Source of the DNA: Deltaproteobacteria bacterium
Lineage (GTDB): Bacteria; Myxococcota_A; UBA9160; SMWR01
Assembly (NCBI GenBank): GCA_024638705.1
Contig: JAHEJV010000001.1
Coordinates: 9-64,008, forward strand
DNA length: 64,000 nt
Reading direction: 5' to 3'
Shown in pieces: positions 12,210 through 56,074 of this stretch. A program made the translations under genes and the position numbers. Numbering within the stretch: position 1 is the first letter of the stretch; each line of letters begins with the position of its first letter. The notes under the pieces are model-generated. The model made no database searches. It was not told the origin of the DNA and was given only the letters and a program-made list of their open reading frames with translations.

Positions 12210-12268
12210 ACCGTCCTTCAGGGCCCGGAGATGATTTCCAAGTGCGCGAAAGACCCTAGAATCGCGCC

Positions 12269-13435: not shown

Positions 13436-13437
13436 AG

Positions 13438-13977
13438 GTGACGCGAACGGGGGTCGGGGGGCCGCTGTTCAAAGCGCTGGTCGGAGCCGCCCTGCTCGTC
13501 GTCCCGTTCGGACTGCGCCTCCTGAGCCCGCATCTCGAGCCCTACCCGGCGGTGTTGTTGCCGTCGGGCGCGGGCGTGATCCCGGTGGACGGCGACGTCG
13601 TCTCCTTCGAGCGGCTCGCACTCGTCGGCGTCGATGCCGCGAGTGGCGAGGAGAAGGAGCTCGCTCCGGACGCCTTCCTCGCGCCCGCCCCGCTCCAATA
13701 TCTGCGCGCGATCACCGGAAACCACTTCGGCCTCGAAACGGAGCGCGAGCGGGAAGTGGCCTTGCGCGGCCTTCCGTTCGCGATCGTGTTCGAGCGGCCG
13801 GAGATCACCGACGCGGAGCGCGACGAGGCGCGCGCCTGGCTGCGTGCGAGGCTGCGCGATGCGGGCTGCGACGACGCCCTGCTGCGCGTGCGTCGCTACC
13901 GGACGCACTACGACGTCGCCGTCCGGGAAGCGAAGAACGAGGAGCTCGTCGTTGAGCAGCGCTATCGCCTCCGCTGA
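13438..13977 (+). CDS. Hypothetical membrane-anchored protein (possible SdpA-like partner of the HTTM protein)
   Basis: GTG start 3 nt after the gcdH stop. N-terminal hydrophobic helix LFKALVGAALLVVPFGL. About 179 aa with GC-rich third codon positions. Its 3' end overlaps the next gene. Confidence 0.5.
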   Translation: MTRTGVGGPLFKALVGAALLVVPFGLRLLSPHLEPYPAVLLPSGAGVIPVDGDVVSFERLALVGVDAASGEEKELAPDAFLAPAPLQYLRAITGNHFGLETEREREVALRGLPFAIVFERPEITDAERDEARAWLRARLRDAGCDDALLRVRRYRTHYDVAVREAKNEELVVEQRYRLR

Positions 13978-15882: not shown

Positions 15883-16114
15883 CACTCTGCCTTTCGGTCG
15901 GGCTCGCGCTCGACGCAAGCGTCGCACAGCCCTCCCGCGCTCCGGGCATATGGAGGAGTGCCCCGGCAGGCCGTCGAAGATACCTCTGGTTTCGCTCACG
16001 AGCGCGCAGGCGGGGGTCGCAACGTGCCGGGCGCCGTGCGCTTCCGGAAACCGCACCGGGCGGCCGCGAAAGCGCGCGTGATAGAGTTCCCGCCCGCCGC
16101 TCGCGAGGATCGCC

Positions 16115-16351
16115 ATGCCCGACACCGCCGCACGCTTCCTCGACGCCTGGCATCCGGGCGTCGCGGCGCGAGACGCCGCCGCCCTCGGACCCCTCTTCAC
16201 CGACGACCTCACGCTCGGCGCCCCCTCCGCCCTCGACGGCGACCGCCGCATCGCGAACCTCGACGTGTCGATCCGGCCAGCGGACGCCCTCCAGGCCGCG
16301 ATCGCACGCGTCGCGCCGCGCACGCCGCGAAAACTCGCCGAGAAGCGTTAG
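16115..16351 (+). pseudogene. Possible truncated NTF2/SnoaL-like fragment
   Basis: The 78-aa ORF starts like a SnoaL-type protein (ARFLDAWHPGVAARDAAALGPLFTDDL) but is about half the normal length. No clear RBS. Confidence 0.25.
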
Positions 16352-41822: not shown

Positions 41823-42380
41823 CTACTCGTCGTCCCGCATCACCACCACCTGATAGAGCGCCAGCGCGCGTCGCACGCCGTTGGTGGTGGCGCGGGCCGA
41901 GAGGGTGGCGCCGACGATGCCGTGCACGTCGCCGCCGAGGCGCAGCGGCTCGGCGAGGCTCTTCTCCTCGAACTGGCGATACCAGCGCTCCGTCGGCATG
42001 TATTCGAGCGGTTCGTGGAAGGCGAGGACACGCAGCGTGCGGACCTCCCCCTCCGGCGACAACACGACGAGGAAGGCCTCGGGCAGCGTGCGGACGTTGT
42101 GCACGTCGATGAACGCGTAGCCGAGCAGCTCGTTTTCGCGGAAGCCGCGATACACGCGCACCACGCGCGACTCGAGCGGGCTCTTCGCGAGCGTCTCGAT
42201 CGCGCGGGCCTGATCGTCGCCGAGCAGGATCGATTCGTCCTCGATGCGGTCGGCGTCGGGAAACGCCAGCTCCAGCGCCTCGCTGCGGCTGAAGAACACC
42301 TTCGCCTCGGCGCTCGTCGCACCGAGGAATCCCAGGGCGAGCGCGCAGAGCGCCGCCGCGATCGTCGTTCTAGAACACAA
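41823..42380 (-). CDS. Periplasmic FMN-binding domain protein (FMN_bind; candidate ApbE substrate)
   Basis: Signal peptide ALALGFLGATSAEA. Contains DVHGIVGATLSARATTNGV, i.e. the GAT(L)S flavinylation-type motif found in NqrC/RnfG/NosR-like domains. Confidence 0.78.
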   Translation of the reverse strand: MCSRTTIAAALCALALGFLGATSAEAKVFFSRSEALELAFPDADRIEDESILLGDDQARAIETLAKSPLESRVVRVYRGFRENELLGYAFIDVHNVRTLPEAFLVVLSPEGEVRTLRVLAFHEPLEYMPTERWYRQFEEKSLAEPLRLGGDVHGIVGATLSARATTNGVRRALALYQVVVMRDDE

Positions 42381-43722
42381 GTCCGAACCCCGCGTTGATT
42401 TCGTCGGCCAGAGCCCCGCGTCGCGGGTTCCGATTGCGATAGTCGACCTTGAGCACGACGTTGGGGATCGGCTTCGCCGACACGCCCGTCGTGAAGATCG
42501 TTTCCATGCGATTGCGATTCGCCGCGAAGCCGGTCGGCACGTCCTTCTGCGTGTTGACCTGCTCGAAGCGGACGAAGGGCTCGACGGTCCAGCCGCTCTG
42601 CGGCGCGAGCCACTGCATGATCTCGTAGGCGAGCTCGCCGTAGTAGCCTTCCATCTGTTCGGCGATCACTTCGTTCGGGGCGATGTCGCCGGTGAGGCGC
42701 AGCGCGTTGGTGAGGTCGCGCGCGCCGTCGAGCAGCGCCTGGGTGTAGAGGGCGCGAGCGTGCAGGCCAAAGCGCTGGAACTGGGCGTGCGCCTCCCAGA
42801 CCGCGAGCCGCGCCTGGGGTAGCACGAGCGATCCGCCCCCGAATGCCGGCAGCACGGTGATGCGCTGGTCGTGGCCGGTATTGCCGATCATCCCCGAGCC
42901 GCCCACTTGGAGGCCCGGCAACGGCTCGACGTCGAGTGAGCCGACGAAGGAGAGATCGTCGGCGTTGGCGCGGTTGCCGCGCATGCGTCCGCCGCGCAGG
43001 CCCGAGTCCGAGAAGCCCGCGCCGTTCAGGCTCGTGATCACGTAGGCCTTGTATTCGACGATCTCGGCGACGCGACCGAACACGCCGACACCGTTCTCGC
43101 GGAACGTGGAGGGAATGATGTTCGTCTCGGAAAGCGGACGGTTGTTCCCGAAGAAGAAGGGCGGCTCGTGCAGCTCGTTCAAGAAGCCCATCGGCACGAG
43201 CATCAGGCCAGCGCGCAGATTCGCCTCGTCGCGCCAGAGGTAGTCGAGGGTGGCGAACTCGACCGACACCGATCCGCCGCTCGACCCTTCGTGGCTGCTG
43301 GTCGAGGCGTGCTCGAACTCGAACTCGGCGTTGAAGACGATCTCATCGGTGAACTTGTAGCCGGTGTAGAGGACGGTGCGGACGAAGTCGAAGGTGTCTT
43401 CCTGGTTGCTCTTGCGCTTGTCGGCGATGACGTCGGTGTAGCGGGCTTCCGCGTAGCCCCCGATCGAGAGACCCTTGCTGACCGAGTAGACCTTCGAGGC
43501 CGCTGGCCCGAGGCCCCATTCGCTCTCGAGCTCGATGTCCTCGGGCACGCCCATGTCCTGACGCGTGCGCGCCAGCTCGTCGGTGAGGATCTCCACCTTG
43601 CGCTCGAGCTCGCGCATGCGGTCTTCGGTGGCGAGCGCCTCGTCCTCGGTCTGGGCGAAGGCCGGGACGGCGAGCGCGCCGGCCAGGAGAATGGCAACAG
43701 CGATCGATTCGATGCGGATCAC
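42370..43722 (-). CDS. Outer-membrane beta-barrel porin-like protein with N-terminal coiled coil
   Basis: Signal peptide ending AFAQ and coiled coil RMRELERKVEILTDELARTRQ. Amphipathic beta-strand pattern alternates, with a C-terminal ...GFGLVF (terminal Phe). Confidence 0.72.
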   Translation of the reverse strand: MIRIESIAVAILLAGALAVPAFAQTEDEALATEDRMRELERKVEILTDELARTRQDMGVPEDIELESEWGLGPAASKVYSVSKGLSIGGYAEARYTDVIADKRKSNQEDTFDFVRTVLYTGYKFTDEIVFNAEFEFEHASTSSHEGSSGGSVSVEFATLDYLWRDEANLRAGLMLVPMGFLNELHEPPFFFGNNRPLSETNIIPSTFRENGVGVFGRVAEIVEYKAYVITSLNGAGFSDSGLRGGRMRGNRANADDLSFVGSLDVEPLPGLQVGGSGMIGNTGHDQRITVLPAFGGGSLVLPQARLAVWEAHAQFQRFGLHARALYTQALLDGARDLTNALRLTGDIAPNEVIAEQMEGYYGELAYEIMQWLAPQSGWTVEPFVRFEQVNTQKDVPTGFAANRNRMETIFTTGVSAKPIPNVVLKVDYRNRNPRRGALADEINAGFGLVF

Positions 43723-43804
43723 GGGCTCGGCTCCGGGCTCACGAAGAGCCGGTGGGGCTCGGGGCGATCGACCGCTGGCCTCAGGATCGAGAACGGGTTT
43801 CGGA

Positions 43805-43993
43805 TCACGGAAGGGCCTCGACGGCGACTTCGCCGCTTTCCGGCTCGAGGGCGACCACCAGACGGCGCTTGCAGCGGCGGCACTTCAGCTCGACGCCGCC
43901 GGGCACCCGGCGCGCGACGAGGCTGCCGCACAGGCAGCGGCAATCGTCCACGTCGCGTCGTCGAACGAGGGCGTTGGTTTCCGCGCGCGGCAC
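43805..43993 (-). CDS. Com-like zinc-finger small protein (62 aa)
   Basis: CRCLCGSLVAR...ELKCRRCKRRLVV resembles the Mu Com-type CxxC...CxxC finger. GTG start. First ORF after the Fur-box-like palindrome. Confidence 0.4.
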   Translation of the reverse strand: MPRAETNALVRRRDVDDCRCLCGSLVARRVPGGVELKCRRCKRRLVVALEPESGEVAVEALP

Positions 43994-44077
43994 CGGGGGC
44001 TTCCTCCGCCGCGCTCCCCACCCCGATCTCAGGCCCGGGAGCCGGGTCTGTCAGATCGTCGGTTTGGGGGCGCGAAT

Positions 44078-44102
44078 GAAATTGAAAATCACATTCAATT
44101 TC
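44078..44102 (-). promoter_or_regulatory. Fur-box-like AT-rich palindromic operator
   Basis: GAAATTGAA-aatcaca-TTCAATTTC is a perfect 9-bp inverted repeat. It sits in the only AT-rich patch between fur and the downstream operon, about 85-110 nt upstream of the first ORF. Confidence 0.55.
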
Positions 44103-44289
44103 AGGATCGGCACGGTACGCCGGGCCCCGAGACGTGTCAAGCGCCCGGAGCGGCCCTCTGGCGGGGGTTTCGGGTCGATCCGGCGGCAGTGCGCGCCCGA
44201 CGCGGGGCGTCGAGGCGAGAAGCCGCCGCTCGGGCAAGCCCGGAGGCCGCGGCCCGGATCCGCTCGGTGACGACCGCGCTCCGCGCGAC

Positions 44290-44727
44290 CTACGTGGCCA
44301 GCTCTTCCTGGCACTTCCCGCAGTGGCCGTAGAGCTCGTGGCGGTGGCGCAGGACGCGGAAGTCGTAGCGCGCCGCGATCTTCTCCTGGGCGGACTCGAT
44401 CATCTCGCACTCGAACTCGATGATCTTCCCGCAGCGCGTGCACACGAGGTGGTCGTGGTGCTCGTGGGCGATCTCGTAGCGCGTGGTGCCATCGAAGTTG
44501 TGCTCGTGGGCGAGCCCGGCCTCGCATAGCAGCTTCATCGTGCGGTACACCGTCGTGTGACCGATCTGCGGGTGGCTGTCGCGCACGCGCTGATAGAGGT
44601 CTTCGCTCGTGATGTGGCCCGACACCTCGAGGAAGACATCCAGGATCGCCTCACGTTGCTTCGTGTGCTTGAGCTGGTTGTCTTCGAGGTAGCGTGCGAG
44701 CGTGCGGTGTTCGACCTCGTGCGCCAT
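44290..44727 (-). CDS. fur: Ferric uptake regulator family protein
   Basis: ATG at 44727. Motifs seen: KHTKQREAILDVF, TTVYRTMKLL, HEHHDHLVCTRCGKIIEF and HCGKC (CxxC pairs). Confidence 0.9.
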   Translation of the reverse strand: MAHEVEHRTLARYLEDNQLKHTKQREAILDVFLEVSGHITSEDLYQRVRDSHPQIGHTTVYRTMKLLCEAGLAHEHNFDGTTRYEIAHEHHDHLVCTRCGKIIEFECEMIESAQEKIAARYDFRVLRHRHELYGHCGKCQEELAT

Positions 44728-44773
44728 CGCACCGACGGTAATCGAGGGCGGGAGGCCGGGCAAACAGCGACGC

Positions 44774-45124
44774 TCAGCGGGGCGGCGCAGCCGCGCGCAT
44801 CCCCCGCAGATTGCGCTGCGCGGCCTCGTTGTCGCAGTCGAGCGCGACGGCGCGCTCGAAGGCGCCCCGCGCATCGTCGCGTCGCTCCGCGGCGAGATAG
44901 GCCAGGCCGAGGTGGTTCTGCACCTCCGACGCCTGCGGCGCGAGCACGGCGGCCTCTTCGAGCGCGGCGATCGCGGCGATCGGATCGCCGGCGTCGAGCG
45001 CGCGGGTGCCGTCGCGATAGAGGATGGCGCCCTGAAACGTGTTGCAGCCGAGGGCGCTCACGAGGAAGGCGAGTAGCCCGACGAGGATCCAATCGGGACG
45101 CGTGCAGACACCGCGGCGTGACAC
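44774..45124 (-). CDS. TPR-repeat lipoprotein
   Basis: Lipobox LVSALGC. TPR-like helices: AIAALEEAAVLAPQASEVQNHLGLAYLAAERRDDARGAFERAVALD. Confidence 0.7.
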   Translation of the reverse strand: MSRRGVCTRPDWILVGLLAFLVSALGCNTFQGAILYRDGTRALDAGDPIAAIAALEEAAVLAPQASEVQNHLGLAYLAAERRDDARGAFERAVALDCDNEAAQRNLRGMRAAAPPR

Positions 45125-45274
45125 GGCTCGTTTCTACCGGCAGCCGCGGGCCCGGGCAAGCCGTCTCCCTGGGGGCGGAACTCGGGGACGGGAGGCTGCC
45201 GCCGCGTGCAGCGCTCGGCGCGGCGTCCGGGCGCGCACCTCGGACCCATCGGTTCTGACGAATCTTCACCCCTG

Positions 45275-45313
45275 CATTTCCTATTTTTCGAATCGGCTCG
45301 GCCAGCCGATACT
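45275..45313 (+). promoter_or_regulatory. Copy A of the shared bipartite promoter-like motif (upstream of HPF-like gene 45345)
   Basis: CATTTCCTATTTTTCG-N15-CCGATACT. It sits 32 nt before a GTG start preceded by GGGAGG. Confidence 0.35.
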
Positions 45314-45344
45314 CACGTCGTTCGATGCAACGGGAGGAATCATC

Positions 45345-45674
45345 GTGAGACTGGCAATCGAAACGCAGCGCTGTGAGATCGACCCCTGGCTCGACGAGTA
45401 CGTCGGGACGACCGTCGCGTTCGCCACCTGGTGGGCCGACCGAAGCGTCGAGCGCGTCGACGTCCGGATCGAGCGATCGAGCGGAGCCGCCGGCGAGCCG
45501 TTCTTCCTGTGCAGACTTCGCGCGACCACGGCGGGTCTCGGCATCGTTTCGGCCGAGGCGGGAGCCCGCGATTGCTGCGAGGCGATCCAGGAGGCGGCCG
45601 ACCGGCTCGAGGTGGCCCTGTCCGGCGCGATGACCGTGTTGGTGGCGGCGGCGACGCGGCGCCTCGCCGCCTGA
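45345..45674 (+). CDS. Divergent HPF/RaiA-like (ribosome hibernation factor fold) protein
   Basis: GTG after GGGAGG. The pattern RLAIETQRCEIDPWLDEYV...VDVRIE...AIQEAADRLEVAL follows the HPF/YfiA layout, but weakly. Confidence 0.45.
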   Translation: MRLAIETQRCEIDPWLDEYVGTTVAFATWWADRSVERVDVRIERSSGAAGEPFFLCRLRATTAGLGIVSAEAGARDCCEAIQEAADRLEVALSGAMTVLVAAATRRLAA

Positions 45675-45689
45675 ACCGGACCACGCGCC

Positions 45690-46039
45690 TCACGAATCCC
45701 CGACCGGCGAGACGGAACCGTCGGGCTTCACCGCGACGATCGAGGTCTCGAGACGGTTGATGATCTCCTCGGCCTCTTCGCGGATCACGAACGCGGCGCC
45801 GCCACTCGGGAGTGTCGTCCCGATCACGACCAGATCCGCTCCCTGATTCGCCATCTCGACGGTCTCGAGGAAGGGCACGCCGTCGCGCACATGCACGCGC
45901 GCCGGGTCGATCGCGTCGCCGAAAGGATCGATCGCGCGATCGAGTCCTTCCTCGGCCCGGCATCTAGCTCTCTCGACGTAGTCGCGGAACGGGTCCTCGG
46001 CCGACCGTCCGAGAAAGCGAGCACGTTCTCGAACTTCAT
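45690..46039 (-). pseudogene. Universal stress protein-like gene, apparently frameshifted or degenerate
   Basis: ATG at 46039 after GGGAGG gives MKFENVLAFSDGR, a typical USP start, then runs into Arg/Ser-rich nonsense. A frame offset by one nucleotide is open from 46076 to 45690. That frame gives SAEDPFRDYVERA...DGVPFLETVEMANQGADLVVIGT...IVAVKP but has no start before GTG 45896. Confidence 0.45.
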
Positions 46040-46109
46040 TCGCAGTCCTCCCGAGGCCGAACCTACGGGGGACTGATCAATCCACAATCAGAAACTTCAC
46101 CCGGTTCCC

Positions 46110-46157
46110 ATCGTCTTTTTCGCTGGTTTGGAGCTCTCCCCGGAATCGTCTTTTTCG
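46110..46157. repeat. 13-bp perfect direct repeat (ATCGTCTTTTTCG x2) in the USP/sbtA divergent region
   Basis: Copies lie at 46110-46122 and 46145-46157. The second copy shares TTTTTCGAATC with the motif-A region (45284-45294). Confidence 0.85.
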
Positions 46158-46171
46158 AATCAATTTTCTTA

Positions 46172-46210
46172 ACTTTTCTACTTGTTGAATGAAAGGGACA
46201 ACCCTAAACC
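46172..46210 (+). promoter_or_regulatory. Copy D of the shared bipartite promoter-like motif (upstream of sbtA)
   Basis: ACTTTTCTACTTGTTG-N15-CCTAAACC. It sits 35 nt before GTG 46245, which is preceded by AGGAAG. Confidence 0.35.
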
Positions 46211-46244
46211 TCGCTCCGGGCTCGATCGACCTAGGAAGACGCAC

Positions 46245-47201
46245 GTGGAACTCATCCAGAGCAATGTCCTGACTCCGATGGTCCTGGCGTTCGCTCTCGG
46301 GGTCGTCGGCGCGCGGATCGGGAGCGACCTGAGGCTCCCCGACGCGATCTACTCGGGTCTCTCGATCTATCTGATCTTTGCGATCGGACTCAAGGGCGGA
46401 TCGGCGCTCTCCGAAGCCTCGCTGCTCGAGGTCTCGGGGCCGGCGCTCGTTGCCCTCGGGATCGGCGCCATGACGCCCGTCTGGTGCTTCGCGATCCTGC
46501 GCACGCTCGGCGGCTTCACCGTCGTGGACTCCGCCGCCGTCGCAGCGCACTACGGTTCGATCTCGATCGTGACGTTCATCGCGGGCGTCACCTACCTCGA
46601 CTCGCTGTCGGTTCCCTACGAAGGCTTCATGCCGGCGTTCGCCGCGCTCCTCGAGATTCCCGGCATCGTCGTCGCGCTGCTGCTGGCCCACCGCGCGAGT
46701 GATTCGGAGAGCGGCATGATGGAAGGTCTGCGCGAGACCCTCACCGGTCGCAGCGTCGTCCTGCTGGTCGGCGGTCTCGTCATCGGCATCCTGAGTGGAC
46801 CTCCCGGCCTCGCGAAGGTGGCGCCCTTCTTCGTCGAACCGTTCCAGGGAGCCCTGGCTCTCTTCATGCTCGAAATGGGACGCCTCGCCGCGAGTCGCCT
46901 GCAGGATCTGCGCAGCTCCGGCGCCTTCCTCCTGGCCTTCGCCATCGTCATTCCGATCCTCCAGGGTTTGCTGGGCGTCGTTGCCGGATCGTGGGCTGGG
47001 CTCTCGGAGGGCGGCGCCTTCGCGCTCGGACTCCTCGCAGCCAGCGGCTCGTACATCGCCGCTCCCGCGGCCGTCCGGCTCTCGCTGCCCGAAGCGAACC
47101 CCAGCCTCTATCTCACGCCGGTCCTCGCCATCACCTTCCCATTCAACCTGACGGTGGGGATCCCGCTCTTCCACACGTTCGCCCGATGGTGGCAGGGATG
47201 A
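46245..47201 (+). CDS. sbtA: Sodium-dependent bicarbonate transporter family permease (SbtA-like, DUF897)
   Basis: About 10 TM helices. Motifs seen: ELIQSNVLTPMVLAFALG, LSIYLIFAIGLKGG, AAHYGSISIVTF and ASGSYIAAPAA. Preferred start is GTG 46245; the longest ORF starts at TTG 46182. Confidence 0.82.
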   Translation: MELIQSNVLTPMVLAFALGVVGARIGSDLRLPDAIYSGLSIYLIFAIGLKGGSALSEASLLEVSGPALVALGIGAMTPVWCFAILRTLGGFTVVDSAAVAAHYGSISIVTFIAGVTYLDSLSVPYEGFMPAFAALLEIPGIVVALLLAHRASDSESGMMEGLRETLTGRSVVLLVGGLVIGILSGPPGLAKVAPFFVEPFQGALALFMLEMGRLAASRLQDLRSSGAFLLAFAIVIPILQGLLGVVAGSWAGLSEGGAFALGLLAASGSYIAAPAAVRLSLPEANPSLYLTPVLAITFPFNLTVGIPLFHTFARWWQG

Positions 47202-47211
47202 GGGAGCTCCG

Positions 47212-47514
47212 ATGAAGATGACGCGTGTCAAGCTCGTGACGATCGTCGCCGAGTCCGTTCTCGAGGCGCGATTGATCCGGGAGATCAAGGAACTCGGCGC
47301 CCGCGGCTTCACCCGGAGTGAAGTGCGCGGCGAGGGATCGCGTGGACGCCGCGTCAGCGACGTCGAAGGCGCGAACGTCCGGCTCGAATGTCTCGTTTCG
47401 GACGAGACGGCCGAGCGGATCACGAGCGCACTCGCGGATCACTACTTCGAGAACTACGCGGTCGTCGCTTTCGTAGAAGACGTCTCCGTCGTCCGCGGAG
47501 AGAAGTACGTCTGA
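47212..47514 (+). CDS. sbtB: PII-like signalling protein (SbtB-like)
   Basis: 100 aa, starting after GAGGGAG. Has a beta-alpha-beta PII-like pattern ([29 protein letters not shown]...) with a T-loop-like GEGSRGRR. Sits immediately after the sbtA-like gene. Confidence 0.75.
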
Positions 47515-47517
47515 TCG

Positions 47518-49830
47518 ATGGAATGGATCGTCCCCATCGTGTTGGCGACGGCGCTCGCCGCGCCCGGCTTGTCGGTGCGCCTTCGAGAGCGCGCGGGCTT
47601 CGTGCTCGCACTCGTGCCGACAGGTGTGGCGCTTCACGCGCTCTTCGCGCAGAGCGCGATCGCGCGGGGGGAGTACGCGACGACGCGTCTCGCGTGGGTG
47701 CCCAGCCTCGGCATCGAGTGGGCCTTCCGGGTCGATGGGTTGTCGAACCTCTTCGTCCTGTTGATCGCGGGCATCGGCGCGTTGATCGTCCTCTACGCGA
47801 GCGCCTATCTGCGCGGGCATCCGAGGATCGGGCGCTTCTACGCGTTCCTCTTCCTCTTCATGGCGGCGATGCTCGGCATCGCGACCTCGGACGATCTGAT
47901 CCTGCTCTTCGTCTTCTGGGAGCTGACGACGGTCTCGTCCTTCCTGCTGATCGGATTCCAGCAGGAGAAGGAGGCCGCCCGCAACGCGGCGCGTCGATCG
48001 CTGCTGGTGACCGCGTCCGGGGGGCTCGCGCTCCTCGCGGGATTCATCCTGTTGGCCGCCGCGGCGGGGACGACGTCGATCTCGGCGCTGGCGCAACAGG
48101 GAGAGGCGCTCCGCGGCCACGCGCACTACCCCTGGATCGTCGGCCTCGTGCTCGCGGGAGCCTTCACGAAATCGGCCCAGGTGCCCTTCCATTTCTGGCT
48201 CCCGGACGCCATGCAGGCGCCCACTCCCGTGAGTGCCTACCTGCACTCGTCGACGATGGTGAAAGCAGGCGTCTTCCTCCTGGCGCGGCTCTCCCCGTCC
48301 CTCGGCGGAACCGACTTCTGGCTCGTCGCGTTGGGAGGCTTCGGCGCGGTCACGATGATGCTCGGCGCCGTCCTCGCGCTCGGTCAGGACGACCTCAAGC
48401 GCCTGCTCGCCTACTCGACGATCAGCGTGCTGGGCCTGCTCACGATGCTGCTCGGATTGGGGACCCCCATCGCGGCGCGCGCTTTCGCCGTCACGCTCTT
48501 CGCGCACGCGCTCTACAAGGGAACGCTCTTCCTCGTGGCCGGCAACGTCGACCATGCGACGGGAACGCGTTCGCTGCGCGAACTGCGCGGGCTGCGCGGC
48601 GCGATGCCCTGGACCGCCGGCGCCGCGCTGGTGGCGGGCATCTCGATGGCGGGAGCGCCGCCGCTCTTCGGGTTCCTCGCGAAGGAGACCGCCTACGAAG
48701 CCGCACTCGAGGCGCCGCGCTGGGCCGCGTTCTTCGGACCGGCCACGGTGCTGACGGGCGTCTGTCTCGTCTTCGCCGCCCTTCGCGTGGGCTGGTCGGC
48801 GTTCGCCGGTTCGCCCGGCGAGCCCGCTCGCGCCGCGCACGACCCGGAGCCCGCGATGCGTTTCGGGCCCTCCGTTCTCGCGACGATCGGTCTGCTCGGC
48901 GGAATGCTGGTCGGCGGGGCGGAGCGTTGGCTCATCGCGCCCGCCGCCACGGCGATCCTCCAGGAGCAGGCCCCCACCGGGCTCGCGCTCTGGCACGGCT
49001 TCACGCCGATCCTCGCATTGAGTGTTCTCACCCTCGTGCTGGGCTTCGGCGTGTATCGCGCCCGCTCGCTCGTGCTCGAAACCGCTTCTTCCGCGGGCGC
49101 GCTCGCGCTCCCCGGAGCGGGTCGCGTCTGGGACGCCGCGTGGGACGGCCTCCTCCGCGCGGGCGCGTGGCAGTCGCGGATGCTCCAGAATGGTTCGCTG
49201 CGCCGCTACCTCGCCGTCACCCTCTCGGCGGGCTTTGCCGCCGTGCTATGGGGGCTCCTCGATGCGGGCCCCATGCCGTCGGCGCCCTTCGGCCCTCCCG
49301 TGTCGAGCATCGGGATCGCCTCGGGTCTCCTGATCCTGGGCGGCGCGGTGCTCCTGCTCGTCGCATCGACGCCACTCGTGGCCGTCGCGGCGCTCGGGTC
49401 CGTCGGGTTGGGCGTCGCCCTCCTCTTTCTCGTCTACAGCGCGCCCGACCTCGCACTCACCCAGCTCGTGATCGAGGTGCTGACGGTCGTGCTCTTCGTG
49501 TTCATCCTGCGTCGCCTACCGCGATCGCAGTCGTTCCGCAGCTCGGGCCACACACCCGGCGCCATCGCACTCGCGGCGATCGCGGGCACGACCATGGCCG
49601 CGCTCACCTGGCTCGCGTTCGAAGTGCAGCTCGCGGAGCCGATCTCGGTCTACTTCGACGAACAGAGCGTCCCGATGGCGCAAGGCCGGAACGTGGTGAA
49701 CGTGATCCTCGTCGACTTCCGCGCACTCGACACGCTCGGCGAGATCACCGTGCTGGCCGTCGCCGCACTCGGCGTCCTGGCGCTGCTCGCGAGGAGACGA
49801 CTCGCTCCGGGCGCGGGAGCAGAGACATGA
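47518..49830 (+). CDS. mrpA: Mrp/Mnh-type cation:proton antiporter subunit A (NuoL-like, with C-terminal MrpB-like extension)
   Basis: 770 aa. Motifs seen: [49 protein letters not shown]. The ATG lies 3 nt after the sbtB stop. Confidence 0.93.
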
Positions 49831-50240
49831 GCACCCTCATCCTGCGCACCGCGACGCGCTACCTGGTTCCCGTGTTGTTGCTCTTCTCCGTCTTCCTGCT
49901 CTGGCGAGGACACCACGAACCGGGCGGTGGCTTCGTCGGAGGGTTGGTCGCCGCCGCGGCGCTGGTGTTGATTGCGCTGGCCGAGGGGTCGGAGACCGCG
50001 CGGCGCGTGCTGCGCGTGCAACCGACGACGCTGGTGCCGATCGGCCTCGCCACGAGCGCCGGCGCCGGGAGTCTCGCCTTCCTCGAAGGTCGGCCGTTCC
50101 TGACGGGTCTCTGGTCGAAGTCGGAGGAGGCGGGCGCACTCGCGATCGGATCGCCCCTGCTCTTCGACGTCGGCGTCTTCCTCACCGTCGTCGGCGTCGT
50201 GCTGACGATCCTGCTGGCGCTGATCGAGGAGACGTCATGA
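49827..50240 (+). CDS. mrpB: Mrp antiporter subunit B
   Basis: ATGA overlap with mrpA. Contains [17 protein letters not shown], the typical MnhB signature. Confidence 0.85.
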
Positions 50241-50584
50241 CGCTGCTCGTCGCAATCGCCGTCGGCGGCATCTACGCGGTGTCGGTGCTGCTGCTCCTGC
50301 GCCGCAGCCTCGTTCAGCTCCTGCTCGGGCTGGCGCTGCTCAGCCACGGCGCGCATCTGTTGATCTTCGCAGGCGGGGGCATGGTGCTGGGCAGCCCCCC
50401 GCTGGTTTCCGAGGGAAGTCTCGCGCCGCTCGCGGGCAGCGCGGATCCCCTTCCGCAGGCGCTCGTCCTGACGGCGATCGTCATCGCGTTCGCGGTGCTC
50501 GCGTTCGCGCTGGTGCTCGGGTTGTGCGCCGGTGAAGCCGCCGGCACCGACGAGATCGACGCCTACGGGGGCGATTCCGGATGA
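50237..50584 (+). CDS. mrpC: Mrp antiporter subunit C (NuoK-like)
   Basis: ATGA overlap. 115 aa, 3 TM. Contains [17 protein letters not shown]. Confidence 0.88.
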
Positions 50585-52074
50585 CCGACGCACTCCTCGT
50601 TGCTCCCATCCTGATTCCGCTCCTCACGGCGATCGCCGGTGCGTTCGGCTGGGGAAACGCTCGCTTCCAGCGTTCCATCGGCGTGTTCGGAACGGGCGCG
50701 TTGCTCGTCGCGGTCGTCGCCCTGTTCGTCGAAGTGAATCGCGCGGGCGTGGTCGCCATCCAGCTGGGAAGCTGGCCGGCCCCCTACGGCATCACCCTGG
50801 TGGCCGATCTCCTGGCGGCGCTGATGGTGCTCGTCACGGCGGTCGTCGCATTCGCAGTCGCGATCTACGCCACGACCGACGTGGACGACGCCGCGCTCGA
50901 GATCGGCTTCTTCCCGTTCTTCCACGTGTTGCTGATGGGCGTCTGCGGCGCCTTTCTCACGGGCGACCTCTTCAATCTCTACGTGTGGTTCGAGGTGATG
51001 CTGCTCGCCTCGTTCGTCCTCCTCGTCTCGGGCCCCGGCCGGCTCGCGCTGCGCAGCGGCGTCGCCTACGTCACGCTGAACCTGCTCGCCTCCGCCTTCT
51101 TCCTCGTGGCGGTCGGCATCCTCTACGGAAAGGCGGGTTCGCTGAACCTCGCGGATCTCGCGATCAAGTTGAGCGCATCCGACGGGCCGGAGGCCGCTCG
51201 ACCGGTCGCGTTGCTGCTCCTCGTGGCGTTCGGCATCAAGGCGGGCCTCTTCCCGGTCTTCTTCTGGCTCCCTGCCGCCTACCCCCGCGCGGGCTTCGCG
51301 GTGTCCGCGCTCTTCGCGGGCCTGCTCACCAAGGTCGGCGTGTATGCCCTGATCCGCGTCTTCACCCTGCTCTTCCCGGTCGCCGAACACGGCATCGCAG
51401 ACCTGTTGCTCGCGTTGTCCGCAGCGACGATGGCGAGCGGCGTGCTCGCGGCGGCGTCGCAGTCGCATGTCCGCCGCATCCTGTCGTTCCATATCATCAG
51501 CCAGATCGGATACATGGTGCTCGGCCTCGCTTTGCTGACGCCGCTCGCCCTGGCCGCGGCGATCTTCTACGTCGTCCACCACATCGTGACCAAGACCAAT
51601 CTCTTCCTCGTGGGAGGTCTGATCGCGCGCGCCGGCGGAAGCGAGGAGCTCGGCCGCCTCGGCGGCCTCAGCGTGCGTCGCGTCGGTCTCTCCGTGTTGT
51701 TCGCCGTGCCCGCGCTGTCGCTCGCAGGCGTGCCGCCCCTGTCGGGGTTCTTCGCGAAGCTTCTCCTGCTCCGAGCGGCGCTGGATGCCGAGGCGTTCGT
51801 GGCCGCCGCGATCGCAACGGCGGTCGGTCTGCTCACCCTGTACTCGATGACGAAGATCTGGAACGAGGCGTTCTGGAAACCGGCTCGGGAGGACGAGCGC
51901 CCCGGCGACGGCACCTTGCCGTGGTCCGCGCTCGTCGCCAGCGGAGCGCTCGCGACGGTGACCATCGCGCTCGGGCTCGGGGCCGAGGCCCTCTGGTCGA
52001 TCGCCGTCGATGCGGCGGATCAGCTGTCCGGACACGACGACTATCTCCGCGTCGTGCTGGGGTCGCGGACGTGA
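50581..52074 (+). CDS. mrpD: Mrp antiporter subunit D (NuoM/N-like)
   Basis: ATGA overlap. 497 aa. Motifs seen: [31 protein letters not shown] and [11 protein letters not shown]. Confidence 0.93.
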
Positions 52075-52544
52075 AGCTTTTCGCCTGGAACGTCGGTCTC
52101 GCCCTGCTCTGGGCCGCCGTGCTCGGCGCCTTCTCCCTCGCCAACCTGGCGGCGGGATTCGTGCTGGGCTTCGCGATTCTCGCGCTGGTCGGCGGCTGGA
52201 TCGGATCGACACGCTATTTCGCGAAGGCCGTCCGCTTCGTCGAGTTCGTCGGCTTCTTCCTCGCTCAGCTCGTGCTCTCGAGCGTTCGCGTCGCGACCGA
52301 CGTCCTGACGCCGCGTCTGCGAGCAGAGCCCGCGATCGTGTCGATCCCCCTCGATGCGCGAACCGACGGCGAGATCACGCTCCTCGCAAACCTCATCAGC
52401 CTGACTCCGGGAAGCCTGAGCCTCGACGTCTCCGAGGATCGCCGCACCCTCTTCGTGCACGTGATGTTCCTCGAGGACGCCGAGACGTGTCGACGCGAGA
52501 TCAAGGACGGCTTCGAGCGCCGCGTCCTGGAGCTGCTCCGATGA
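52071..52544 (+). CDS. mrpE: Mrp antiporter subunit E
   Basis: GTGA overlap with mrpD. The pattern LLANLISLTPGSLSLDVSEDRRTLFVHVM is typical of MnhE. Confidence 0.8.
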   Translation: MKLFAWNVGLALLWAAVLGAFSLANLAAGFVLGFAILALVGGWIGSTRYFAKAVRFVEFVGFFLAQLVLSSVRVATDVLTPRLRAEPAIVSIPLDARTDGEITLLANLISLTPGSLSLDVSEDRRTLFVHVMFLEDAETCRREIKDGFERRVLELLR

Positions 52545-52822
52545 CGTCCGAGCTGGTCACCGGCGCGGTCGACGTCGCGCTCGTCCTGCTGGCGATCGCG
52601 ATCGCGATCGCATTCGCGCGCCTGGCACGGGGTCCGAGTCTCGCCGATCGGGTCGTCGCGCTCGATGTGATCGCCGCGACGATCGTGGCCGCGGCCGTGT
52701 TGTTCGCGATCCGGACCGGTCTCGCGGTCTTCGTGGACGTCGCACTGGCGATCGCACTCGTCATGTTCCTCGGCACCGTCGCACTGGCCCATGCCATCGA
52801 ATCCGGAGGAGGAAAGGAATGA
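52541..52822 (+). CDS. mrpF: Mrp antiporter subunit F
   Basis: ATGA overlap. 93 aa, 3 TM. Contains RLARGPSLADRVVALDV, an MnhF signature. Confidence 0.8.
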   Translation: MTSELVTGAVDVALVLLAIAIAIAFARLARGPSLADRVVALDVIAATIVAAAVLFAIRTGLAVFVDVALAIALVMFLGTVALAHAIESGGGKE

Positions 52823-53157
52823 GCGACCTCCTCGTCGCCGCGCTCGTGCTCCTCGGCTCCCTGCTCGTCGTGGTCGCCTGCATCGGGCTGCTGCGACTTC
52901 CCGATCTCTACACGCGCATGCATGCGAGCACCAAGCCAGCCACGTTGGGCGTGAGCCTGATCGTCGGAGCGCTCGGCCTTCACGCGGGCGACCTCGGGAT
53001 CGCGGTGCGCGCGCTCCTGATCGTTCTCTTCTTCCTCGCGACGGCGCCGGTCGCGGCGCACCGGCTGGGACACGCGGCCTATTGGGCCGGTGTACCGCGC
53101 TGGTCGGGAACGGTCCGCGACGACCTCGCGAAGCACCGCTCGGAAGCGTCTCGGTAG
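52819..53157 (+). CDS. mrpG: Mrp antiporter subunit G
   Basis: ATGA overlap. Contains GLLRLPDLYTRMHASTKPATLG, an MnhG signature. Confidence 0.87.
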   Translation: MSDLLVAALVLLGSLLVVVACIGLLRLPDLYTRMHASTKPATLGVSLIVGALGLHAGDLGIAVRALLIVLFFLATAPVAAHRLGHAAYWAGVPRWSGTVRDDLAKHRSEASR

Positions 53158-53207
53158 CGCTTGCCGCTTCTGCCTCGAGGATTGGTTTTCTCGATGGATC
53201 ATCCACA

Positions 53208-53247
53208 GATTTTCTATTTTTCAACATCGCCGACGCTTCCTAGCCTT
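53208..53247 (+). promoter_or_regulatory. Copy C of the shared bipartite promoter-like motif (upstream of the TerB-like gene)
   Basis: GATTTTCTATTTTTCA-N15-CCTAGCCT. It sits 23 nt before ATG 53269, which is preceded by AAGGAGG. Confidence 0.35.
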
Positions 53248-53268: not shown

Positions 53269-53835
53269 ATGGATGCGAACCCGTTCCACAACGACGAGAT
53301 CGCGTCCGAGTGCGCCTACCGCCGCCAGGTCGAGGCCGAGCAGGAGCGGCTCGAACGATCGGAGGTCGGAATGGATCGATTGCGCGCCGACCTCGCAGCC
53401 GAGCTCGGCATCGAAGCGGGCCCCCTCGTCGACGACCTGCTCGATCTGGGGGTCAGCCCCAACACGGCGTCGGCCTTCGAATCCCTTCCCCTCGTCGAGG
53501 TGGCGTGGGCCGACGGCAGCGTCGATCCCGAGGAGCGCTGGCGCGTCCTGCGCGAGGCGACGGCGTTCGGGCTCGAGCTGGGCCGCAGCGCGCACGCCCT
53601 GCTCGAGCTCTGGCTGACCCAGCCGCCGGAGCCGGAGATCTTCGACGCCTGGTGCCGCTTCGCCTCGCTGCCGGAGTCCTCGTCTCGCGCCCCGCGCGTT
53701 CTCGCGGGATGTGAAGCGGTCGCGTTCGCGGCGGGCGGGGTGCTCGGTTTCGGCGCCGCTTCCGCGAGCGAACGTGAAGTGATCGGGAGGATCCGACGGG
53801 TCTTCGCCAGCGCCCTCGCGACGGAGGCGGCCTAG
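53269..53835 (+). CDS. TerB-like (tellurite-resistance / DjlA N-domain fold) protein
   Basis: LPLVEVAWADGSVDPEERWRVLREA is typical of TerB-type helical bundles. 188 aa. Confidence 0.55.
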   Translation: MDANPFHNDEIASECAYRRQVEAEQERLERSEVGMDRLRADLAAELGIEAGPLVDDLLDLGVSPNTASAFESLPLVEVAWADGSVDPEERWRVLREATAFGLELGRSAHALLELWLTQPPEPEIFDAWCRFASLPESSSRAPRVLAGCEAVAFAAGGVLGFGAASASEREVIGRIRRVFASALATEAA

Positions 53836-53877: not shown

Positions 53878-54777
53878 CTAGTCCAGAAACCCATCGCGTG
53901 CGGCATCGGCGATCGCGGCCACTGCCGGATGCGTGATCCGCCTCTCGACGGTGATGGCGAAGAACTCCTCTCGCACCTCTTCGGTGCTCCCGACCAGATG
54001 GACGCCATGGCTCTTGCGGATCTCGTCGGCCACGACGATCGGCGCCGCGAAGATGCCCGTGCCGTGTTGGCCGAACACCTTCATCAACGCGGTGTCCTCG
54101 ATCTCGGCGACCGGATTCGGCCGCACTCCGACCGATTCGAACCAGCGATCGAGCGAATGGCGCAGGGTCGTATTGGACGTGGGAAGGAGCATCGGCGCGT
54201 CGTCGAGACCCTCGGGAAAACTCCGACGGTGACGCTTGGCGAGGGCGGGCTCCCCGAAGAAGCCGATCCCGCATCCTCCCAGCGAGTGATTGAACGCCTT
54301 GACCCGCAACGGCGGACCGAGCGGCGCATCCGTGAGCACCATGTCGTACTCCTGGACGGCGAGCGCCGCGAGCAGGCCGTTGGTCTTGCCCTCGTGGAGG
54401 ACCAGCTCCACCGGGTCTTCCAGATCGAGAGCCGTCTTCAACAGGCGGTGGCAGACGATCTTCGGGACGGCATCGGAGATCCCGACGAGCAGCTTCGCCG
54501 GGCGATTCGTCGGGCGACCGCGCAAGGCGTCCTGCATCTCGCGGCCGAGCGTGAAGATCTCCTCGGCGTAGCGGTACACCATCCGCCCCACCTCGGTGAG
54601 CGCGAGATTGCGCCCCTCCCGGACGAACAGCTTCTCCGCGAGGGAGTCCTCGAGCTTGCGGATCTGGCCCGAGAGCGTCGGTTGCGCCAGGCGCAACACC
54701 TCGGACGCCTTGGTCACGCTGCCCTCGCGCGCCACCGTGTAGAAGTAGAGGAGATGGTGGTAGTTGAGCCATTCCAC
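53878..54777 (-). CDS. nhaR: LysR-family transcriptional activator, NhaR-like
   Basis: N-terminus (V)EWLNYHHLLYFYTVAREGSVTKASEVLRLAQPTLSGQIRKLE closely follows the NhaR-type HTH. Preferred start is GTG 54777 (299 aa); the longest ORF starts at ATG 54819. Confidence 0.85.
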   Translation of the reverse strand: MEWLNYHHLLYFYTVAREGSVTKASEVLRLAQPTLSGQIRKLEDSLAEKLFVREGRNLALTEVGRMVYRYAEEIFTLGREMQDALRGRPTNRPAKLLVGISDAVPKIVCHRLLKTALDLEDPVELVLHEGKTNGLLAALAVQEYDMVLTDAPLGPPLRVKAFNHSLGGCGIGFFGEPALAKRHRRSFPEGLDDAPMLLPTSNTTLRHSLDRWFESVGVRPNPVAEIEDTALMKVFGQHGTGIFAAPIVVADEIRKSHGVHLVGSTEEVREEFFAITVERRITHPAVAAIADAARDGFLD

Positions 54778-54816
54778 GGGATTCGTCCTTTCGGTTTTTC
54801 CGAAGAGTATCGAAAA

Positions 54817-54855
54817 CATTTCCTATTTGTAGATAGGTCGACGGCTCCCTAGCTT
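54817..54855 (+). promoter_or_regulatory. Copy B of the shared bipartite promoter-like motif (nhaR-like / HPF-like divergent region)
   Basis: CATTTCCTATTTGTAG-N15-CCTAGCTT. It contains the palindrome CCTAT-ttgtag-ATAGG and sits 24 nt before ATG 54879, which is preceded by AGGAG. Confidence 0.35.
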
Positions 54856-54878
54856 CGTTCTCGAACACAGGAGTGACG

Positions 54879-55217
54879 ATGCAGCTGCGAATCCAGTTCC
54901 GACATCTCGAGATCTCGCAAGAGGCGAAGAACGCGATCGAGCGCGGCGTGCGTCTCGACCTGGGTCGTTACTCGGCGATCATCGCGGAGGCCCGCGTCGC
55001 ACTGTCTCCGTCCCGCCGTTGCGATTTCGGCGAGAAGCAGTCCCGCATCCGCATCCGTCTGCGCAACGGCGAGGCGCTCCTCGGCGAGGGGTGCGGCGCA
55101 GATCCGAAGGAGGCACTCGACGCCGCCATGTGGCGGATCGAGCATCGCCTCGCGAGGCGTCGCCTCGCGCAATCCGACGATCGCCGCGCGATCGGTCCGA
55201 CGATCGCAGGCTACTAG
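54879..55217 (+). CDS. HPF/RaiA family ribosome-associated protein-like
   Basis: MQLRIQFRHLEISQEAKNAIERGVRLDLGRY...ARVAL...DPKEALDAAMWRIEHRLARRR follows the HPF/YfiA fold pattern. Confidence 0.62.
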   Translation: MQLRIQFRHLEISQEAKNAIERGVRLDLGRYSAIIAEARVALSPSRRCDFGEKQSRIRIRLRNGEALLGEGCGADPKEALDAAMWRIEHRLARRRLAQSDDRRAIGPTIAGY

Positions 55218-55381: not shown

Positions 55382-56074
55382 ATGAGCACGGATCGCATTC
55401 TCTCTCAGCTTCTCGGAAGTGGCGCCGCATCCGGATTCGCCGGCGGTCTCGCCGGCGGACTGGCGAGTGGCCTCCTCACCAGCAAGTCCGGGCGCAAGTT
55501 CGGCAAGAAGGCGCTCAAGGTCGGAGGAATCGCCGCGATCGGCGGGCTCGCCTACGCCGCATTCAGCCGGTATCGCGATAATCAGGAGCTCGCCGGGGCC
55601 ACCGCCGTCTCGCGTACCGAGCCCGTCACGCCGGATCGCTTCGTTCCCGCGCCTCATCGCGCCGCCGAAGCGGACGCTCTCGCCCTGACGCTGCTCCGGG
55701 CGATGATCGCCGCGGCGCAGGCCGACGGCCGTCTCGACGGAGCCGAGCGCGCTGCGATCTACGAGCGTGTCGGGTCCCTCGATCTCTCCGATGCGGAGAA
55801 GGCGAACCTGCTGGCCCAGCTCGACGACCCGGTCGACATGAGCTCACTCGTGGCGGCCGCCTCGACCCCGGAGATCGCCGCGGAGATCTACACCGCGTCC
55901 CTGCTCGCGATCGAGCTGGACACGGCGGCGGAGCGCGCCTACCTCGCGATGCTCGCCGCGCGTCTGGGCCTTCCGGACGACCTCGTCGCAGCGATCCACA
56001 ATCAGATCGAGGTCGCCGGTTCCGCCGGAGACGCCGGGCCGCCGCAGCCGACCCTCCAGGCGGCAGCGACGTGA
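55382..56074 (+). CDS. DUF533 (YebE-like, TerB-fold) inner-membrane protein
   Basis: Gly-rich N-terminus with a TM segment (GLAGGLASGLL, VGGIAAIGGLAY), then a C-terminal TerB-like domain (LLRAMIAAAQADGRLDGAERAAI). Confidence 0.8.
   Translation: MSTDRILSQLLGSGAASGFAGGLAGGLASGLLTSKSGRKFGKKALKVGGIAAIGGLAYAAFSRYRDNQELAGATAVSRTEPVTPDRFVPAPHRAAEADALALTLLRAMIAAAQADGRLDGAERAAIYERVGSLDLSDAEKANLLAQLDDPVDMSSLVAAASTPEIAAEIYTASLLAIELDTAAERAYLAMLAARLGLPDDLVAAIHNQIEVAGSAGDAGPPQPTLQAAAT

Follow-up and report, generated by a model that had tools for sequence, protein, structure and literature searches.

Why would a putative bicarbonate transporter and its PII-like partner be encoded at the head of a complete Mrp antiporter operon, in a bacterium that appears to be a heterotroph? 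The question is raised by a stretch of 64,000 nucleotides (nt) from a Deltaproteobacteria bacterium of the lineage Myxococcota_A (contig JAHEJV010000001.1), called the window in the following, with a G+C content of ~68%. On its plus strand, nine co-directional genes span positions 46245-53157, the first two for an SbtA-like permease and a PII-like SbtB and the other seven for the subunits MrpABCDEFG. The answer that we consider moderately probable is a sodium circuit, in which Mrp would expel Na+, the SbtA-like permease would return it together with HCO3- and SbtB would gate this return. What is new is that both systems are fused in one operon, in an apparently heterotrophic member of the Myxococcota and beside a regulator of the NhaR type.

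Layout and products of the sbtAB-mrp operon

The block is made of the following genes:

46245-47201, plus strand: sbtA-like permease gene (318 amino acids (aa), GTG start, TGA stop; Pfam Sbt_1)
47212-47514, plus strand: sbtB-like PII-family gene (100 aa; Pfam P-II)
47518-49830, plus strand: mrpA (770 aa; Proton_antipo_N/M, MbhD and MbhE)
49827-50240, plus strand: mrpB (137 aa; MnhB, E 8e-36)
50237-50584, plus strand: mrpC (115 aa; Oxidored_q2)
50581-52074, plus strand: mrpD (497 aa; Proton_antipo_M)
52071-52544, plus strand: mrpE (157 aa, GTG start; MNHE, E 2e-42)
52541-52822, plus strand: mrpF (93 aa; MrpF_PhaF, E 2.5e-14)
52819-53157, plus strand: mrpG, the last gene of the block (112 aa; PhaG_MnhG_YufB, E 2e-25)

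All nine open reading frames (ORFs) are in frame at these coordinates, each with one terminal stop. The sbtA and sbtB genes are separated by 10 nt and sbtB and mrpA by 3 nt, and the six mrp junctions are 4-nt ATGA or GTGA overlaps, exactly as given in the preliminary description of this DNA. Such overlaps are usual for Mrp operons; the junction between sbtAB and mrpA is the non-trivial part. Each of the nine products falls in its expected Pfam family (E 3e-109 to 2.5e-14), and the third-position GC bias of the block is the same as in the surrounding true genes. A consensus scan of the block found no sigma-70-like promoter, in agreement with the single co-directional unit lacking an internal promoter that had been described. 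No convincing terminator was found inside the block either; the 10 kb scanned gave only two weak terminator-like sites, against 5.5 expected. From this layout we infer that the nine genes probably form a single operon, read as one transcript.

The permease matches Sbt_1 (PF05982) from profile position 1 to 307 of 308 (E 3.1e-109), and is ~28-29% identical to Synechocystis SbtA (phmmer E 5e-29). Its AlphaFold2 model has a predicted local distance difference (pLDDT) score of 85.9 and a predicted template modelling (pTM) score of 0.86. In a Foldseek search with this model, the top five matches were all SbtA structures, 8ZOR and 7CYE among them (template modelling score 0.84-0.87), followed by ASBT, a bile-acid/Na+ symporter, at ~0.6. 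The family, the fold with its two inverted repeats, core and gate domains, and the order sbtA-sbtB are thus those of the cyanobacterial pair Slr1512/Slr1513. The ligands were mapped by alignment to Slr1512, with residues taken from PMC8352866, in which the HCO3- ligands come from a docking model. S114 and S324 of Slr1512, two of the four proposed HCO3- ligands, are kept here as S107 and S269. At the Na+ site, located at the crossover of transmembrane segments TM4a and TM9a, F110, G111, A112, A320 and S322 align with Y103, G104, S105, A265 and S267; these are backbone ligands, for which sequence cannot decide. The short SbtA subfamily has its own invariant residues (H102, Y103, Y270 and R278), and no NCBIfam model names the permease.

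The SbtB-like protein (Pfam P-II, E 6e-21) has as its closest solved relative TTHA0516 of Thermus thermophilus (2CZ4, E 4e-32), a structural-genomics protein without described function, to which it aligns end to end. Cyanobacterial SbtB structures come next (6MM2 and 5O3P, E ~1e-8), and canonical GlnB/GlnK is absent from the PDB matches at E <= 0.01. In the lineage of TTHA0516, Meiothermus also has an sbtA-sbtB pair, where no linkage to Mrp is seen. In comparison with cyanobacterial SbtB, the T-loop is shorter and the Cys-containing C-terminal redox extension is missing: the protein ends with ...RGEKYV at residue 100 and has no Cys pair, whereas the cyanobacterial extension carries a C105-C110 disulfide (PMC8352866).

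Over its full length, MrpA matches its counterparts in three Mrp antiporters of known structure, 6Z16, 7QRU and 7D3U (E 1e-114 to 4e-135), and its E135, K218 and H225 align with E140, K223 and H230 of Bacillus pseudofirmus OF4 MrpA. MrpD aligns end to end with chain D of 7QRU (E 4e-114), its E138 and K220 corresponding to E137 and K219. The Glu of TM5 and the Lys of TM7 are thus conserved in both MrpA and MrpD, and these conserved Glu/Lys residues were reportedly found to be essential by mutation (Morino et al., 2010). MrpB passes the NCBIfam model NF009163 (160.7 bits, cut-off 148), and MrpG passes its NCBIfam model (124.9 against 102) as well as TIGR01300 (86.5 against 63.1). MrpC, MrpD, MrpE and MrpF stay somewhat below the cut-off of their best NCBIfam model, which in the case of MrpC is Na+/H+ antiporter subunit C. 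In length and Pfam architecture the subunits do not differ from ordinary group-1 Mrp, and none carries an extra domain, insertion or fusion.

The group-1 operons of B. pseudofirmus OF4, Anoxybacillus flavithermus and Dietzia (7QRU, 6Z16, 7D3U) likewise consist of seven separate genes from A to G, with an MbhD/MbhE-like C-terminal part in MrpA and the same conserved MrpA and MrpD residues. Unlike here, they have no sbtAB in front. Judged by its sequence, the Mrp block should be an ordinary and complete group-1 antiporter. Pfam, structure and alignments together bear out the gene identities first proposed, namely an SbtA fold, a PII-like partner and a seven-subunit Mrp with its conserved Glu and Lys residues.

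Conservation of the fusion and the bicarbonate context

The SbtA family is large, with at least 7,835 matches at E <= 1e-10 among the 8,000 candidates that were scored. One genome per species was retained, giving 80 loci at 48-78% identity from phyla that include Planctomycetota, Chloroflexota, Deinococcota, Verrucomicrobiota, Bacteroidota and Gemmatimonadota. An sbtB-like gene follows sbtA in ~60 of the 80 genomes. Within this set, mrp follows sbtAB only in the two closest loci, both from metagenome-assembled genomes (MAGs) of Myxococcota, and individual look-ups of homologues added three further fused operons (L082, L168 and L175). The fusion is therefore present in the window and in five other contigs (L002, L003, L082, L168 and L175). 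The preliminary description had named conservation of the adjacency in relatives, beforehand, as the point on which its proposal could fall; it is kept in at least five other contigs, and the proposal survives.

Compared with the window, MrpA of the five fused contigs is 59-74% identical and SbtA 68-78% identical. The gap between sbtA and sbtB is 8-13 nt, and that between sbtB and mrpA 0-3 nt. No two of the six fused operons have related upstream flanks, and all keep this sbtB-mrpA spacing, which argues for maintenance of the junction itself and for genes that adjoin by more than chance. In the SbtA tree, the fused proteins group in a single clade (99% bootstrap support), and the next-closest SbtA (L084, 64% identical) has no mrp fusion. 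On the Mrp side, MrpA homologues at 59-76% identity form a clade with 100% support (neighbour-joining bootstrap in numpy) that contains all fused operons, with L170 (MrpA 63% identical) as an unfused sister. A background set of 80 metagenomic Mrp loci (MrpA 36-48% identical), obtained among the matches listed by a scan whose patterns were too general, contains no sbtAB within 6 kb of mrp. The distribution of the fusion is narrow and patchy.

An Mrp cluster lying ~7 kb upstream of sbtA in the Gemmatimonadales MAG L018 was also considered. It is on the opposite strand, 30-33% identical and unfused, and was rejected as a coincidence.

The genes surrounding the homologues bear on the substrate of the permease. 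ORFs within 5 kb of sbtA/sbtB in more than 80 loci were clustered, and recurrent clusters were named by Pfam. LysR regulators of one family occur in 23 SbtA loci, mostly in divergent orientation, and a beta-carbonic anhydrase in nine, often right after sbtB and with a signal-like N-terminal segment in the representative. TerC was found in seven loci, isocitrate dehydrogenase in five, an HPF-like gene in three, PurK in six and PurE in four to five, while DabA/DabB occur in three verrucomicrobial loci. In the latter (L043, L052 at 12260-16334, and L067, all Verrucomicrobiaceae MAGs), the genes behind sbtA-sbtB are a LysR gene and those of a DabB/DabA pump; these loci are small inorganic-carbon uptake islands. 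In three loci of Planctomycetota (L004, L016 and L053), a LysR gene 48-55% identical to that of the window recurs together with HPF-like, TerC, PurE and sbtA genes, with sbtB after sbtA in L004 and L053 and PurK in L004 and L016. The association of LysR, HPF-like and SbtA genes hence spans phyla.

PurK carboxylates aminoimidazole ribonucleotide with bicarbonate and ATP, and phosphoenolpyruvate carboxylase (PEPC) is also a bicarbonate user. In L084 (9056-13031), the genes TerC-sbtA-sbtB-purE-purK have overlapping or near-abutting junctions, and in L168 (11584-13265) TerB-like, Usp, PurE and PurK genes come after the fused operon. The presence of purE-purK beside sbtAB in the one and after the fused operon in the other relates the transporter to the step of purine synthesis that depends on bicarbonate. 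In L171, a beta-carbonic anhydrase with a Tat signal (SRRELL) occupies the position of sbtAB (3730-4455), 180 nt before mrpA, and PEPC and pyruvate phosphate dikinase genes lie just downstream (11363-14110). The Mrp clade also appears consistent with a tie to inorganic carbon, through the carbonic anhydrase and PEPC of L171 and the PurEK context of L168. According to a review, autotrophic Proteobacteria have SbtA-family transporters with activity on HCO3- (PMC10880623). By guilt-by-association, the neighbours are thus consistent with bicarbonate as the substrate of the SbtA subfamily, and this context lends support to the substrate that had been proposed for the permease. The gene context of homologues would make it a candidate for Na+-dependent HCO3- transport.

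Heterotrophs from many phyla commonly encode the SbtA/SbtB pair, with DabAB, carbonic anhydrase, PurK/PurE and a LysR regulator as its neighbours, which speaks for the supply of bicarbonate to ordinary biosynthetic carboxylations as a regulated function.

As a separate observation, the window encodes a homologue of the topoisomerase VI B subunit (35311-37077, plus strand; Topo-VIb_trans, E 4e-61), and genes for the A and B subunits of this enzyme also lie near sbtAB in L084.

A proposed sodium circuit and its alternatives

A link between Mrp and SbtA has been proposed before. In Synechocystis, mutation of the LysR-type NdhR derepresses the Mrp-like mnh operon (slr2006-slr2013, NdhR/CcmR regulon) along with sbtA/B, and mnh was proposed to drive Na+ out and thereby energise SbtA, an assignment that "remains tentative" (PMC4390856). 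The proposal originated in this microarray co-regulation, and a 2026 review draws NhaS and Mrp as Na+ exporters behind SbtA and BicA (PMC13249358, figure 3). Na+ export by Mrp sustaining SbtA is therefore already a model in cyanobacteria, and the Mrp-made gradient suggested in the preliminary description is not a new idea. As in Synechocystis, an Mrp-like system and sbtAB are associated here with a LysR-type regulator. The cyanobacterial genes are unlinked, whereas those of the window are joined by translational coupling in a single operon, next to a regulator of NhaR and not NdhR type. The host also differs: it appears to be heterotrophic, and no autotrophy genes are present in the window, where the other genes encode ordinary heterotrophic functions. 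In the full-text literature searched, which left most subscription journals outside its coverage, no description of an sbtAB-mrp operon was found, only the cyanobacterial co-regulation model.

In the proposed circuit, Mrp would spend the proton-motive force and membrane potential on exchanging internal Na+ for external H+. Na+ would re-enter through the SbtA-like permease together with HCO3-, and the trimeric PII-like SbtB would plug or free the permease according to the nucleotide state of the cell. The net result would be the entry of HCO3- and H+ driven by the proton-motive force. The imported HCO3- could feed bicarbonate-using carboxylases such as PurK and PEPC when CO2 is scarce, and the cytoplasm would be kept buffered and more acidic than an alkaline, CO2-poor and Na+-containing medium. 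At high external pH, bicarbonate would be the abundant carbon species, and a dedicated path for Na+ re-entry would keep the antiporter running. The substrates (HCO3- and Na+), the direction of the fluxes, the single transcript, and the identity and signal of the regulator are all inferred.

Several findings weigh against such a circuit. Only two of the four docked HCO3- ligands are kept in the permease, Y140 and S327 of Slr1512 being replaced by Ala (A133 and A272). The disordered inter-repeat cytoplasmic loop of cyanobacterial SbtA, ~55 residues long, is absent (318 against 374 aa). MrpA falls just below its NCBIfam equivalog cut-off (898 against 937 bits), and the Mrp sequences do not settle between Na+ and K+ as the exchanged ion. 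Throughout the fused clade, transport activity and expression are predictions. The neighbouring Usp, HPF, BON and TerB-like genes suggest general stress and not carbon acquisition. Mrp is absent from 77 of the 80 SbtA loci, and the MrpA clade that holds all fused operons also contains four operons without sbtAB, namely L172 (MrpA 74% identical), L173 (76%), L174 (66%) and L171 (67%). These four operons show that Mrp does not need SbtA, and together with the many SbtA/SbtB pairs that lack Mrp they contradict an obligatory linkage. Most simply, the two systems would have been joined once near the root of the clade, and sbtAB would then have been lost several times; otherwise, the cassette would have spread laterally among the members of the clade.

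It is possible, though we find it doubtful, that the two systems are co-regulated and nothing more. The locus would then be an alkaline or saline stress regulon with Mrp as its core, in which Mrp alone would extrude Na+ and acidify the cytoplasm. The sbtAB pair would be an optional passenger behind the same promoter, since high pH and low CO2 would call for bicarbonate uptake as well, and both systems would work independently via the bulk Na+ gradient. A core of mrp-Usp-LysR-hpf-DUF533 is indeed conserved in the MrpA clade with or without sbtAB, and in L172 the small HPF-like gene is directly followed by mrpA. The NhaR type of the regulator, the stress genes around it, the patchy distribution and the near-complete separation of the two systems in the SbtA and background Mrp sets point in the same direction. 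The tight sbtB-mrpA spacing, however, persists over a range of 59-78% protein identity, all fused SbtAs belong to one clade still attached to Mrp, and L171 replaces sbtAB with a periplasmic beta-carbonic anhydrase, another inorganic-carbon gene and not an unrelated one. Co-regulation moreover differs from the sodium circuit in degree and not in kind; a shared Na+ pool would couple both systems. With its NhaR-type regulator and its Usp, HPF, BON and TerB-like genes, the island has a stress character that favours an alkaline or saline setting, and the PurEK, carbonic anhydrase and PEPC links favour carbon supply. The carbon-supply and pH-buffering roles are inseparable with the present data.

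Transport of another substrate is unlikely. A short, non-cyanobacterial SbtA-like permease could move a different small anion or organic acid, by Na+-coupled uptake or efflux, and the low identity to characterised SbtA (~28-29%), the two differing HCO3- ligands, the separate set of invariant residues (H102, Y103, Y270, R278), the absence of an NCBIfam model naming the permease and a wider fold class that includes bile-acid and auxin carriers would all be compatible with this. Against it stand the recurrent neighbours that make or use bicarbonate (beta-carbonic anhydrase, PurK/PurE, DabAB, PEPC), the conserved pairing with an SbtB-like PII protein and the HCO3- activity reported for the family in autotrophic Proteobacteria (PMC10880623). 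Still less likely, in our judgement, is an Mrp clade specialised for inorganic carbon, serving as the energy module of a modular pump that is directly coupled to interchangeable partners, either SbtA/SbtB or the periplasmic beta-carbonic anhydrase of L171. The coupling may then be by physical contact or local ion handover at the membrane, and not by the bulk Na+ gradient. If true, this would be a third, Mrp-based solution beside DAB and CUP.

DAB (DabA/DabB) and CUP/NDH-1MS are likewise inorganic-carbon systems that use a membrane subunit of the NuoL/MrpA family, and NuoL-like subunits energise DabA and CupA (bioRxiv 10.1101/476713). In the window, the antiporter is complete instead of a single NuoL-like subunit, and HCO3- would be carried by a separate putative carrier. 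Translational coupling of sbtB to mrpA and the alternative pairing of the Mrp clade with SbtAB or carbonic anhydrase could suggest a physical supercomplex of SbtA/SbtB and Mrp, either as a private Na+ circuit or as a DAB/CUP-like pump on an Mrp scaffold. We regard this as highly improbable: none of the Mrp subunits is enlarged by a further domain, an insertion or a fusion, close relatives do without sbtAB, and the carbonic anhydrase of L171 is Tat-exported and, at 180 nt from mrpA, uncoupled. A DAB-like reading of the block was also rejected, as neither DabA (PF10070) nor CupA/ChpX is encoded in or beside it.

To a specialist, the sodium circuit would not be very surprising. The value of the fusion is that it is kept over substantial divergence outside cyanobacteria, which provides independent comparative evidence for a 20-year-old and tentative Mrp-SbtA link. 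The nine genes also form a 6.9-kb cassette that is movable as a unit into E. coli for a direct test. Cyanobacterial SbtA rescued carbonic-anhydrase-free E. coli noticeably less well than DabAB (bioRxiv 10.1101/476713), and attempts to install SbtA on its own in heterologous systems have failed (bioRxiv 10.1101/2023.08.10.552651). With its own Na+ exporter and PII gate, the cassette may suggest to engineers what a lone SbtA lacks.

Probable regulator, operator-like motif and stress island

The surroundings of the operon contain a LysR-type regulator gene, four copies of an operator-like motif and several stress-related genes:

45249-45286, plus strand: motif copy 1, before the small HPF-like gene, with a -10-like GATACT ~20 nt downstream
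45345-45674, plus strand: small HPF/RaiA-like gene (109 aa, GTG start after gggagga)
46110-46122 and 46145-46157, plus strand: two identical copies, 35 nt apart, of the 13-nt direct repeat ATCGTCTTTTTCG
46146-46183, plus strand: motif copy 2, the putative LysR-controlled promoter of sbtAB-mrp, ending 62 nt before the sbtA start
53182-53219, plus strand: motif copy 3, with one mismatch, before the TerB-like gene
53269-53835, plus strand: TerB/DUF533-like gene (188 aa, Shine-Dalgarno sequence aaggagg; weak DUF533 match, E 0.003)
53878-54777, minus strand: gene of the NhaR-type LysR regulator (299 aa from a probable GTG at 54777; the ORF runs to 54819)
54791-54828, plus strand: motif copy 4, in the divergent intergenic region between lysR and hpf
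54873-55217, plus strand: hpf-like gene, the first downstream of lysR (114 aa; Ribosomal_S30AE, E 1e-9)
55382-56074, plus strand: DUF533/TerB-domain gene (DUF533, E 1.6e-54), syntenic in L082, L172 and L175
56071-56637, plus strand: gene for a BON-domain (OsmY-like) protein, with a 4-nt overlap with the DUF533 stop (BON, E 1e-18), syntenic in L082 and L175

Over residues 17-306, the LysR protein scores 231.9 bits with NF008284, the equivalog model of NhaR (cut-off 219). Its orthologues in L002, L082, L168 and L172 are 77-87% identical, and its length of 299 aa is that of the relatives. E. coli NhaR is a Na+-responsive LysR activator of nhaA, the gene of a Na+/H+ antiporter. As in E. coli, the regulator gene of the window adjoins an antiporter operon and boxes of the T-N11-A type lie upstream of putative target promoters. 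In contrast to E. coli, the gene is convergent with the operon, and the putative targets are Mrp, SbtAB and stress genes instead of NhaA.

The motif was noticed through the decamer TTTTCTAYTT, which occurs exactly twice in the window (0.01 expected), before sbtA and before the TerB-like gene; the 78% relative has it at the same two places. The upstream regions of five fused operons are too diverged for a global alignment (49% column identity), and the shared element was obtained by an anchored motif search. At ten sites in five genomes, an inverted repeat TCG-N7-CGA is followed after 14 nt by A-TTtyCTATTT-tt and, ~20 nt further, by a -10-like CTAGCC or GATACT. The inverted repeat is a LysR-type T-N11-A box. 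The combined pattern TCG-N7-CG-N16-TTNYCTAYTT has four matches on the plus strand of the window with at most one mismatch, against 0.01 expected.

All four copies have counterparts in relatives. Copy 1 is also found before the orthologous small gene in L003, L082, L168 and L172, and copy 2 has equivalents at 9859-9896 of L002 and 9858-9895 of L082. In L168 and L003, the only site found is the one before the small HPF-like gene, and the operon may therefore start one gene earlier in these contigs. Equivalents of copy 3 follow mrpG in L002, L003, L082, L168, L171 and L172, and this copy would mark a separate transcription unit after mrpG. The arrangement of copy 4 is shared by L002 (20231), L082 (19509) and L172 (15691), and a divergent intergenic position is typical of a LysR autoregulatory site. 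The first copy of ATCGTCTTTTTCG is a second T-N11-A box, 35 nt upstream of the box inside motif copy 2, and the two copies may represent two LysR binding boxes, a recognition and an activation site.

Transcription of the operon probably starts at the LysR-type operator/promoter located 62 nt upstream of sbtA. The same element heads the small HPF-like gene, the TerB-like gene and hpf-DUF533-BON, and the adjacent NhaR-type protein is the most likely regulator. Its regulon would thus comprise four units, these three and sbtAB-mrpA-G, with Usp added to the TerB-like unit in relatives. An NhaR-type regulator and a shared operator motif fit a link to Na+ and pH. The block was at first described as a self-contained machine; this does not hold, as it is one unit of a larger island with HPF-like, TerB-like, DUF533 and BON genes.

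By tblastn, the small HPF-like gene matches the 112-aa product of L168 (E 1e-17) and the 145-aa product of L082 (E 1e-12). Ribosomal_S30AE is weak in two of its orthologues (21.7 bits, just under the cut-off of 23.7). In relatives the gene lies before sbtA, as the first of the unit in L168 and L003, and directly before mrpA in L172. A minus-strand ORF at 45340-45963 was considered as the upstream gene and discarded as spurious: it has no Pfam match and the wrong codon-position GC, and the conserved plus-strand gene overlaps it. Between the small HPF-like gene and the sbtA motif (45675-46145, ~470 nt), only a 61-aa ORF (45891-46076) and no Rfam match were found. A riboswitch or other known RNA in the leader was likewise rejected, as Rfam gave no match at gathering thresholds over the window and none at E <= 5 in 45300-46400.

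Genes of 184-192 aa, unnamed or with a faint TerB match, stand in the place of the TerB-like gene after mrpG in L001, L082, L168, L173 and L175. For the TerB-like gene of the window, the ATG at 53270 is out of frame and was rejected as start in favour of 53269.

On the minus strand upstream of the island (42370-44874), the window encodes a Fur-family regulator and a porin-like protein with a weak match to Porin_O_P, at threshold; no connection with the operon was found. Other functions encoded in the window are fatty-acid oxidation, FabH, phasin, HflX, dTDP-sugar synthesis, the arginine succinyltransferase pathway and a MATE exporter. The run HflX-FabH-phasin-acyl-CoA dehydrogenase (8770-13435) is syntenic with positions 1-3454 of L173. 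It lies ~4.5 kb upstream of the sbtAB-less mrp operon in L173 and ~33 kb upstream in the window, indicating a rearrangement between close relatives.

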